Origin: Eubacteriales bacterium
GTDB lineage: Bacteria > Bacillota > Clostridia > Oscillospirales > CAG-272
Direction of reading: 5' to 3'
DNA: 64,000 nt
Assembly (NCBI GenBank): GCA_045653505.1
Contig: JAZOLZ010000001.1
Span: forward strand, 19,223-83,222
The stretch's first letter is position 1, and every line of letters begins with the position of its first letter. Below the pieces are notes generated by a model. That model was not told the origin of the DNA, did not search any database, and saw only the letters and a list, made by a program, of their open reading frames with translations. Below, in pieces: positions 53,922 through 54,343 of the stretch. The position numbers and the translations under genes are program-made.

Positions 53922-53945
53922 CACATACAACAATTATACAAAAGA
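53922..53945. repeat. attR core (24-bp exact direct repeat)
   Basis: cacatacaacaattatacaaaaga. It is embedded in a perfect 13-6-13 inverted repeat at 53931-53962. Confidence 0.85.
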
Positions 53946-54343
53946 AAAATTTTGTATAATTGAGGGCAGTATTTTGGGGTAAAAAAGCCCTATTATGGAC
54001 CCAAAAAGCTGATATTTTGCTCGATTTAACAGATTTGCTGTGTAATTATATATTACAGCTTGATGTAATATCATATTGACCAAAATTAATTCTTTGGCGT
54101 AAAATATAGCGTAGGTGTTACTGATAAAATATGTAGATTAATTTATTCGCATACACTAGAATAAACAATACTTAATATCCACAGAAAGTTTTTAATAACA
54201 AATTTTTAAATATAACAAGCCGAGCTGTTTAAAAACAAATACAAGGAAATATCATATTAGTCATAGATAAAATCTAAACTTTAAAATACACTTGAAAATA
54301 TCAAAAAAAGAATATATAATAGAGTAGGGGACTTCCCTATCTT

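Follow-up and report, generated by a model that had tools for sequence, protein, structure and literature searches.

To our knowledge, phages that exploit the Xer recombinases of their hosts have been worked out almost exclusively in Proteobacteria. The filamentous phage VGJphi integrates as double-stranded DNA through a 29-bp attP whose homology to dif is confined to the XerC side, and for catalysis it requires XerC alone (PMC4246890). In TLCphi, the XerC-binding arm and the central region of attP are almost identical to dif1, and the XerD-binding arm is degenerate (PMC4246890). The Legionella element LME-1 carries a dif mimic, and its att site revealed a non-canonical dif at the terminus that profile searches had overlooked; genetic evidence showed that a single recombinase, XerL, is both necessary and sufficient there (PMC9765430). 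Here we analyse a 64-kb stretch of contig JAZOLZ010000001.1 from a Eubacteriales bacterium (Clostridia), called the window below, on whose numbering all coordinates are given. It carries a small inovirus prophage (48754..53945) whose right-hand junction is a perfect palindrome. [quoted passage not shown] We regard it as likely that the palindrome is the host copy of an Oscillospirales-type dif and that the recombinase-less inovirus integrates there through host Xer, whose catalytic role is proposed by analogy with the systems above.

The prophage ends rebuild a palindromic site

The prophage measures 5192 bp when one core copy is counted, and all of its open reading frames (ORFs) lie on the + strand. 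It is bordered by a 24-bp core, CACATACAACAATTATACAAAAGA, which is identical at 48730-48753 and 53922-53945, as the initial annotation had it. These are the only copies in the window, even with three mismatches allowed, and two copies were present in 0 of 100 shuffles; the repeat is thus tied to the element's boundaries and is not a common genomic repeat. At attR (53922..53969, + strand), the core runs into caattatacaaaa-gaaaaa-ttttgtataattg (53931-53962), a perfect 13-nt inverted repeat around a 6-nt spacer. Nested within it is the 11-6-11 sequence ATTATACAAAA-GAAAAA-TTTTGTATAAT (53933-53960), a pattern that occurs once in the window with up to three mismatches allowed (0.00 expected from shuffles), and a G-rich flank, TGAGGGCAG, completes attR at 53961-53969 (+ strand). 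At the other end lies a hybrid site, attL (48730..48771, + strand), which consists of the host left flank, the same left arm (48739-48751, with ATTATACAAAA at 48741-48751), a phage-derived central region of 7 nt, gattgtt (48752-48758), and a phage right arm, TTTTGTAGTAA(TG). Taken as a 13-mer, this partner arm is ttttgtagtaatg (48759-48771), mismatched to the perfect arm at 3 of 13 positions. Both the perfect 13-6-13 palindrome at attR and the imperfect, 7-nt-spaced version at attL therefore stand as first described. The attP reconstructed for the window phage has 11 + 7 + 11 positions: its left arm is perfect, its right arm has three mismatches, and its central region of 7 nt agrees with that of the host in the first two bases (GA) and no further. 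Rfam gave no match at or around the att sites.

Similarity between the two repeat copies reaches weakly leftward beyond the core (36 nt at 86%, about 40 nt at 87.5%). Comparison of 48718-48753 with 53910-53945 shows that the host and phage flanks are identical for 10 nt past the arm and about 87% identical over 40 nt. This likeness is peculiar to the window host, being absent from the other lysogens, and could reflect mimicry or gene conversion. That the host-left flank is the decayed end of an older prophage was rejected, as the alignment score beyond the terminal 40 nt or so was 42, against 39 ± 5.5 for shuffles.

Two further observations were made near the junctions. An exact arm plus one base (ATTATACAAAAG) lies inside zot at 53433-53444, where it encodes a YTKGGY stretch and is followed by no partner arm; the zot gene of the related free form L186 has a one-mismatch copy of the arm at the corresponding point, and the arm copy within zot is probably a coding coincidence. 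A tRNA-Ser(GGA) gene (46909-46999, − strand) is found about 1.7 kb to the left of attL and is not the integration target.

A clade-wide site with the geometry of dif

IMG/VR was searched with the two arms at a fixed spacing, ATTATACAAAA-N6-TTTTGTATAAT, and 39 contigs were recovered. When the gap was left free (0-24 nt), matches rose to 59 contigs, of which 39 had a spacer of exactly 6 nt, with any other spacing found in at most four. The arm geometry, beyond the arm words themselves, is under constraint. The fixed pattern was also searched in a set of one genome per species (GTDB), where it was present on at least 120 species-level contigs, one copy per locus, with 22 arm bases invariant across these at least 120 species. 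Carriers among the matches listed are all Clostridia (Acutalibacteraceae, Ruminococcus, Oscillospiraceae, Butyricicoccus, Agathobaculum, Anaeromassilibacillus and Eubacteriales). Loci were compared as 8-kb stretches, 181 being fetched overall (L060-L179 are the genome loci).

A consensus built from 119 sites, including the window's own, reads A-ATTATACAAAA-T[G/A]AA[A/T]A-TTTTGTATAAT-TnAGGGnAG, and the window site, G-rich flank included, fits it. The two 11-mer arms are identical (over 13 nt in the window) and enclose a 6-nt spacer, as in a dif site. One arm alone is flanked by TnAGGGnAG (+29 to +37 from the site), so that the oriented site is asymmetric. The flank is kept in all classes of locus, whether a xer gene lies on the flank side, on the other side or is missing, and it may set the polarity of the site. 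In some species, the xer gene also uses the flank as its Shine-Dalgarno sequence.

On either strand, GC skew switches from positive to negative, going from left to right, across a replication terminus, and the reverse holds at an origin. The sign is the same whichever strand is read, so the difference in skew, left minus right of the site, can be tested independently of orientation. Among the matches listed, 83 loci had at least 1 kb on both sides, and the difference was positive in 79 of them (mean 0.12, Wilcoxon p = 2e-14); genes in the genome loci among the matches listed converge on the site. Skew in the window stays positive between about 26 and 54 kb and then turns negative, with a cumulative peak at about 54-56 kb, and the related lysogen locus L185 has the same switch. 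Whether the palindrome coincides with the terminus had been put forward as a check on the proposal; it does sit at a terminus-type skew switch, and it does so across the clade rather than being private to one strain.

The initial annotation had also remarked that the site does not obviously resemble canonical dif. This holds for the consensus as a whole: the palindrome does not match the canonical Firmicutes dif consensus, of which it appears to be a divergent variant, and no canonical Bacillales-type dif scored above shuffle level in the 120 loci among the matches listed. The remark goes too far for the arms, however. When the clade consensus is aligned in register with the Bacillales-type dif ACTTCCTATAATATATATTATGTAAACT, the two agree at 17 of 28 positions, and in counts made by hand the G-flanked (right) arm agrees with the XerD arm at 8 of 11 positions, the left arm with the XerC arm at 5 of 11. 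The right-arm match suggests that the G-flanked arm is the XerD side, and hence that the phage, by analogy with VGJphi and CTXphi, uses the XerC side. Taken together, these features of the site point to the palindrome as the dif of Oscillospirales-type Clostridia, in a divergent form with symmetric arms. The location of the prophage is that of an IMEX integrated at host dif: the 11-6-11 site is clade-wide, lies at a terminus-type skew switch and is linked to xer genes, and it probably functions as dif.

Related lysogens, free forms and an unoccupied site

Relatives of the window phage were traced through homologues of its Zot and Rep proteins. At least four other hosts, represented by L185 (GCA_965339355.1), L188, L189 (GCA_045655765.1) and L190/L191, carry related prophages at the same site, and right junctions alone were recovered in L182-L184. 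The related loci share a context of aspartate kinase, prophage, site, spoIIID, SpoU methylase and PGI. In every case the prophage lies opposite the G-rich flank, with rep beside attL and zot beside attR. The attR of every lysogen is a perfect arm-6-arm site with its G-rich flank. The attL sites have a perfect left arm, a right arm with zero to three mismatches and a central region of 7 nt in the window, 9 nt in L185, L188 and L190 and 10 nt in L189. Host and phage central regions have in common no more than the 1-3 nt that adjoin the left arm (window, GA; L185, TGC; L188 and L190, T), and the direct repeats in lysogens with both junctions resolved are 24 (window), 18, 21 and 13 bp long.

Related contigs of about 5.2-5.6 kb span the junction from Zot to Rep. 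One of these, L187 (5599 nt), has a 30-nt terminal overlap, which shows it to be circular. In both L187 and L186, zot leads directly into rep, and the attP between them consists of a left arm without mismatches, 8 or 11 nt, and a right arm close to the consensus. The imperfectly palindromic attP that had been predicted from the window junctions is thus found in free relatives, and across the window phage, L186 and L187 it has the form of a dif mimic (perfect left arm, 7-11 nt, right arm with one to three mismatches).

The counterpart of the free form, an unoccupied chromosomal site, is present in L063, where the site lies without a phage beside an aspartate kinase gene of 72% DNA identity, with spoIIID, SpoU and PGI in place; the empty site that had been called for is thereby found in a syntenic relative. 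In the window, the aspartate kinase gene (47161..48477, + strand; Pfam AA_kinase plus ACT domains) forms the left chromosomal flank, and it is common to the lysogens L185, L189 and L190 and to L063. A terminator-like hairpin follows it at about 48483-48520. To the right of the site, the nearest gene is spoIIID (54344..54634, − strand; Pfam SpoIIID, E 4e-33), a neighbour that recurs in L182, L185, L188 and L190. It is followed by a SpoU-family RNA methyltransferase gene (54688..55467, + strand; Pfam SpoU_methylase) that is syntenic in all related loci and in L063.

These loci bear on the possibility that the repeat arose by homologous or illegitimate recombination, with the palindrome there by coincidence and the prophage a decaying remnant without any site-specific system. 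Short homology of the sort this would need does exist in the window, where the host-left and phage-left flanks are alike over about 40 nt. However, five lysogen loci, four of them with both junctions, have differing flanks and yet show the same orientation, the same junction logic and repeats of 13-24 bp; free genomes of the lineage exist, one contig being circular; and the genes of the window copy are all intact and full length relative to the family. We find a coincidental origin hardly credible.

The arrangement is better accounted for by integration through host Xer. Tyrosine recombinases cut at the boundary between arm and central region, and the swapped strand must pair with the first central bases of the partner site (PMC4246890). 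The junctions are as would be expected from a single pair of strand exchanges at the left-arm boundary. In the route that we propose, replicative, presumably double-stranded phage DNA would present the dif mimic, attP, and a host Xer-family tyrosine recombinase, acting on the left arms of dif and attP, would swap one pair of strands where the arm meets the central region. Beyond their first bases the central regions are unlike in both sequence and length, and a second exchange would therefore not be productive. The resulting Holliday junction would probably be resolved by replication, as for VGJphi and CTXphi, leaving a hybrid attL and an intact dif at attR. With an intact dif at attR, the host would retain dimer resolution. 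Both the use of the XerC side and the route through a single strand exchange are suggested by likeness to these phages.

An inovirus without a recombinase of its own

All ORFs between the repeats were compared with Pfam, PHROGs and NCBIfam, and none has an integrase, transposase, resolvase or serine recombinase domain. The lack of a recombinase noted initially is borne out: the only enzyme-sized proteins are a 303-aa protein with the fold of a rolling-circle replication initiator of the Rep_trans type and the 282-aa Zot ATPase. The remaining ORFs encode either products of at most 151 aa or membrane and coiled-coil proteins. The G+C content of the prophage is about 0.33, against about 0.39-0.40 in the flanks.

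The Zot/pI-type morphogenesis ATPase (52994..53842, + strand) has the Walker A motif GGLGSGKT and shares 44% identity (tblastn, E 3e-50) with the Zot annotated in bajarodino virus 71, a circular member of the Inoviridae of 5276 nt; 12 further small inoviruses match it, and there are 338 Zot homologues at E ≤ 1e-10. A search of IMG/VR with a Zot peptide pattern yielded no relative. Judged by Zot, the nearest phage in GenBank is bajarodino virus 71; no convincing copy of the site is present in it, the best candidate being an arm with one mismatch and no partner arm, and the virus probably uses another host or site.

The 303-aa protein (49030..49941, + strand) had no match by sequence in Pfam, PHROGs, NCBIfam, GenBank phages or the Protein Data Bank (PDB). 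An AlphaFold2 model based on a 41-sequence family alignment was predicted with high confidence (pLDDT 92.2), and its best Foldseek matches were the RepD/RepDE rolling-circle initiators 4cwe_A (E 1.3e-9) and 4cij (E about 1e-5), with probability 1.0. Tyr173 in RVKIYQKDIE (motif KIYxKDxE) and an EYNPNK motif are invariant in the family alignment. The structural matches to the model and the invariant tyrosine identify the protein as a replication initiator of Rep_trans/RepD-type fold, and not a recombinase.

The other genes were assigned by eye, small membrane proteins being among their products. In a candidate major coat protein (50542..50799, + strand; likely start at an internal ATG, 50596), a basic C-terminus (…GIGLVHKFTRKAG) comes after a hydrophobic helix; the protein has no match in Pfam or PHROGs. 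The 409-aa product of 51077..52306 (+ strand), whose N-terminal segment is signal-like and whose C-terminus has a membrane anchor, gave just weak coiled-coil matches in profile searches and is, from its position and topology, a candidate pIII-like adsorption protein. Three tandem 33-nt units within its gene (51999-52097), two of them identical, encode ELETQKNTYET repeats in a coiled-coil-like region that could be variable in length. Zot, the Rep fold, gene order and sizes and a circular 5.6-kb relative, with coat and pIII candidates recognized by eye, place the element in the Inoviridae (Tubulavirales): it is an inovirus.

Two non-coding structures may serve its replication or packaging. A 19-nt inverted repeat (GCCACTCTGTATAAA / TTTATGCAGAGTGGC) followed by a T run (T7) at 49001..49045 (+ strand) folds as DNA at −17 kcal/mol (z = −7.9) and overlaps the annotated start codon of rep. 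Possible roles for it are those of an origin, iteron or terminator, and Rep may in fact start downstream of the annotated codon. The sequence TTTAT(A/G)CAGAGTGGC is present in three copies, two in this hairpin and the third at 53883-53898; in the circular form, this third copy lies upstream of the attP arm by 38 nt. The non-coding stretch that precedes the coat gene contains a G+C-rich 28-nt inverted repeat (50345..50405, + strand; −26.3 kcal/mol, z = −5.4), which by analogy with hairpins of known inoviruses is a candidate packaging signal or complementary-strand origin.

Unrelated elements at the same target

The site is also occupied by inoviruses unrelated to the window phage. L112 contains a 5.6-kb inovirus with Zot and a RepB-type Rep (RepB/Rep_OBD), bordered by a 27-bp repeat that comprises the G-flank, one arm and the whole spacer, and L015 contains a 6.9-kb inovirus with Zot, a G2P-type Rep and a 26-bp repeat of the site. 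Both adjoin a host xer gene, and a check of their larger ORFs revealed no integrase. Three Rep types are therefore found at one target.

This distribution speaks to a mechanism allowed for in the initial annotation, in which the phage Rep itself would nick phage DNA and join it into the chromosome at the palindrome, independently of Xer. Rep is the sole DNA-cleaving enzyme that the element encodes, and palindromes can extrude hairpins that rolling-circle initiators recognize. Yet the three Rep types that share the target, namely Rep_trans fold, RepB/Rep_OBD and G2P, are unrelated, which makes Rep-mediated integration unlikely. The attP is a two-armed mimic, and crossover at the arm/central boundary is the signature of a tyrosine recombinase; by reasoning, nicking and joining by Rep is not expected to leave direct repeats of 13-27 bp that always hold one arm. 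We give this mechanism very little credence and retain host Xer as the probable agent.

Smaller or less well defined elements were also seen. L108 (42-860) and L138 (1201-1968) have apparently non-coding inserts of about 750-810 bp at the site, with repeats at their ends that comprise one arm and the flank (55 bp in L108). The two share about 100 nt that by eye resemble the phage zot-rep intergenic region, and they could be miniature non-autonomous elements or prophage remnants. The IMG/VR contigs L003 and L010 (6.6 and 7.7 kb) combine the palindrome with an Xer-family gene of the type found adjacent to the site, and L010 has a Rep_trans gene as well; they are probably host xer-dif regions with another integrated rolling-circle element rather than integrase-bearing phages.

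Xer-family genes near the site

A gene for an Xer-family tyrosine recombinase of about 330 aa lies adjacent to the site, that is within 700 nt, in 52 of the 120 loci among the matches listed, mostly at a distance of 0-170 nt, and is transcribed away from it; within the 8-kb loci it is present in 57 of these 120. Its best NCBIfam matches are XerC, XerA and XerD at E 1e-60 to 1e-66, below every equivalog cut-off, XerS included. In at least 10 loci, a second, near-canonical XerD gene (325 bits, against a cut-off of 329.6) lies 1-2 kb away. Some features are those of a single-recombinase system: gene and site are adjacent in 52 of 120 listed loci, the window not being one of them, and symmetric arms would fit one enzyme. 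We dropped the claim of a single-recombinase system despite the symmetric arms, given the near-canonical XerD neighbour in at least 10 loci.

Dif or promoter

Several observations weigh against reading the palindrome as a host dif used by the phage. The arm TTTTGTATAAT equals the extended −10 promoter consensus (TGnTATAAT), and across the 181 fetched loci there are 48 extra single arms (33 in genome loci), where a hand estimate from base composition gives about three. Because the arm has this promoter form and single arms are frequent, part of the conservation of the site could be promoter-related. The counts of one site in the 64-kb window and one in each 8-kb locus hold at the level of these stretches, as does the terminus-type skew. 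The unoccupied site comes from a syntenic relative, L063, and none from the same species. There is no xer gene in the 64-kb window (tblastn E > 0.29). Finally, the same palindrome lies inside tailed-phage contigs, where a role as dif is not obvious.

The tailed-phage contigs with the 11-6-11 palindrome (L004, L008, L011, L019, L025, L027, L032 and L036) encode an SPP1-type portal and a terminase, and the palindrome sits between the portal gene and the genes downstream of it (for example at 4736-4763 of L011). Its flanks are conserved, the 6-nt spacer differs from contig to contig, and an extra single arm lies 67-85 nt off in most of them. Here the palindrome could be a dimer-resolution site or a divergent promoter pair.

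The promoter observations might be taken to mean that the palindrome is mainly transcriptional, either as back-to-back extended −10 promoters or as an operator of the recombinase gene, with the phage integrated by another recombinase, such as the enzyme of about 330 aa, which would then be a domesticated island integrase and no chromosome-dimer resolvase. In favour of this, TGTATAAT is present in each arm, single arms are frequent, often at a promoter-like distance upstream of genes, and in 31 loci among the matches listed the G-rich flank is the Shine-Dalgarno sequence of the recombinase gene. However, site and flank are equally conserved in 63 listed loci, the window among them, in which no recombinase gene is adjacent. 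A position between convergent genes at a skew switch is the wrong setting for a divergent promoter, and the strict 6-nt spacing with 22 invariant bases in at least 120 species is more than a promoter needs; moreover, integrase-less elements recombine exactly at the arm/central boundaries. A mainly transcriptional role is thus improbable in our view, and we favour a dif site, which in some species may double as promoter or operator of xer. Each check that we ran supports the IMEX-type interpretation first offered for this prophage, with host Xer as the presumed catalyst. Of the four features that define an IMEX, the prophage shows three (no recombinase of its own, a probable dif as its target and a dif mimic as attP), and dependence on host Xer would be the fourth.

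Comparison with described systems

The closest parallels are VGJphi and CTXphi. Like the window phage, they are integrase-less filamentous phages at dif that regenerate an intact dif on one side, with a single dif-like attP whose central region matches dif just beside one arm. If its arms are 11 bp long, the 29-bp attP of VGJphi would by arithmetic have a 7-bp central region, so that the 11 + 7 + 11 attP of the window phage has the same length. The replication initiator of CTXphi, RstA, belongs to the Rep_trans family and has the same fold as the window Rep. In contrast to both phages, the window phage has a Gram-positive anaerobe as its host, its target has a G-rich flank and two identical arms where theirs has distinct XerC and XerD arms, and the central region of attP ranges from 7 to 11 nt within the lineage of the window phage. 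The window phage also differs from CTXphi in having one dif-like site rather than a pair of inverted sites that fold together in single-stranded DNA, so a CTXphi-type single-strand fold is not indicated. A closer match to TLCphi is seen in the L112 inovirus from another species, which, unlike the window phage, shares one arm, the whole central region and the G-flank with the site and has a degenerate other arm.

As with LME-1 and XerL, the att site of a mobile element that carries a dif mimic has exposed an unrecognized candidate dif at a terminus-type position; here, in contrast, there are two candidate recombinases, the Xer-like protein of about 330 aa and the near-canonical XerD. XerH/difH of Helicobacter and Campylobacter and XerS/difSL of streptococci and lactococci likewise have the recombinase gene beside the site, as in 52 of 120 listed loci, and arms that end in AAAA and start with TTTT around the centre (compare the difH left arm, AGTTATGAAAA, with ATTATACAAAA). 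They differ in that the arms here are perfectly symmetric, the recombinase of about 330 aa falls below the NCBIfam cut-offs for XerS, XerC, XerD and XerA, and an XerD-like second gene is often nearby.

We searched the literature for the arm sequences, for dif or Xer in these taxa and for IMEXs in Gram-positive bacteria, and found no relevant description. A large inovirus survey took its att criteria from tRNA genes and integrases, and the word 'Xer' is absent from its text. Mechanisms of this class are known; what appears undescribed is the variant of the site, the clade of the hosts and how diverse the exploiting elements are. On balance we lean, with some hesitation, towards a broader picture in which Oscillospirales-type Clostridia use a previously undescribed dif with two identical arms and a polarity set by the G-rich flank, and in which diverse Gram-positive inoviruses, possibly with mini-elements and tailed phages, exploit it by at least two strategies, one VGJphi-like through the left arm and one TLCphi-like through the right arm plus central region.

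These findings provide sequence-level evidence for the exploitation of Xer in Gram-positive gut anaerobes, where a phage att site points to the candidate dif of a whole clade, as that of LME-1 did in Legionella. The 28-bp motif is usable as a marker of the terminus in fragmented metagenome-assembled genomes, and it gives exact borders for small inoviruses that prediction tools usually overlook. The combination of symmetric arms with a G-rich flank raises the question of how the order of strand exchange and FtsK-type control are set at such a site.

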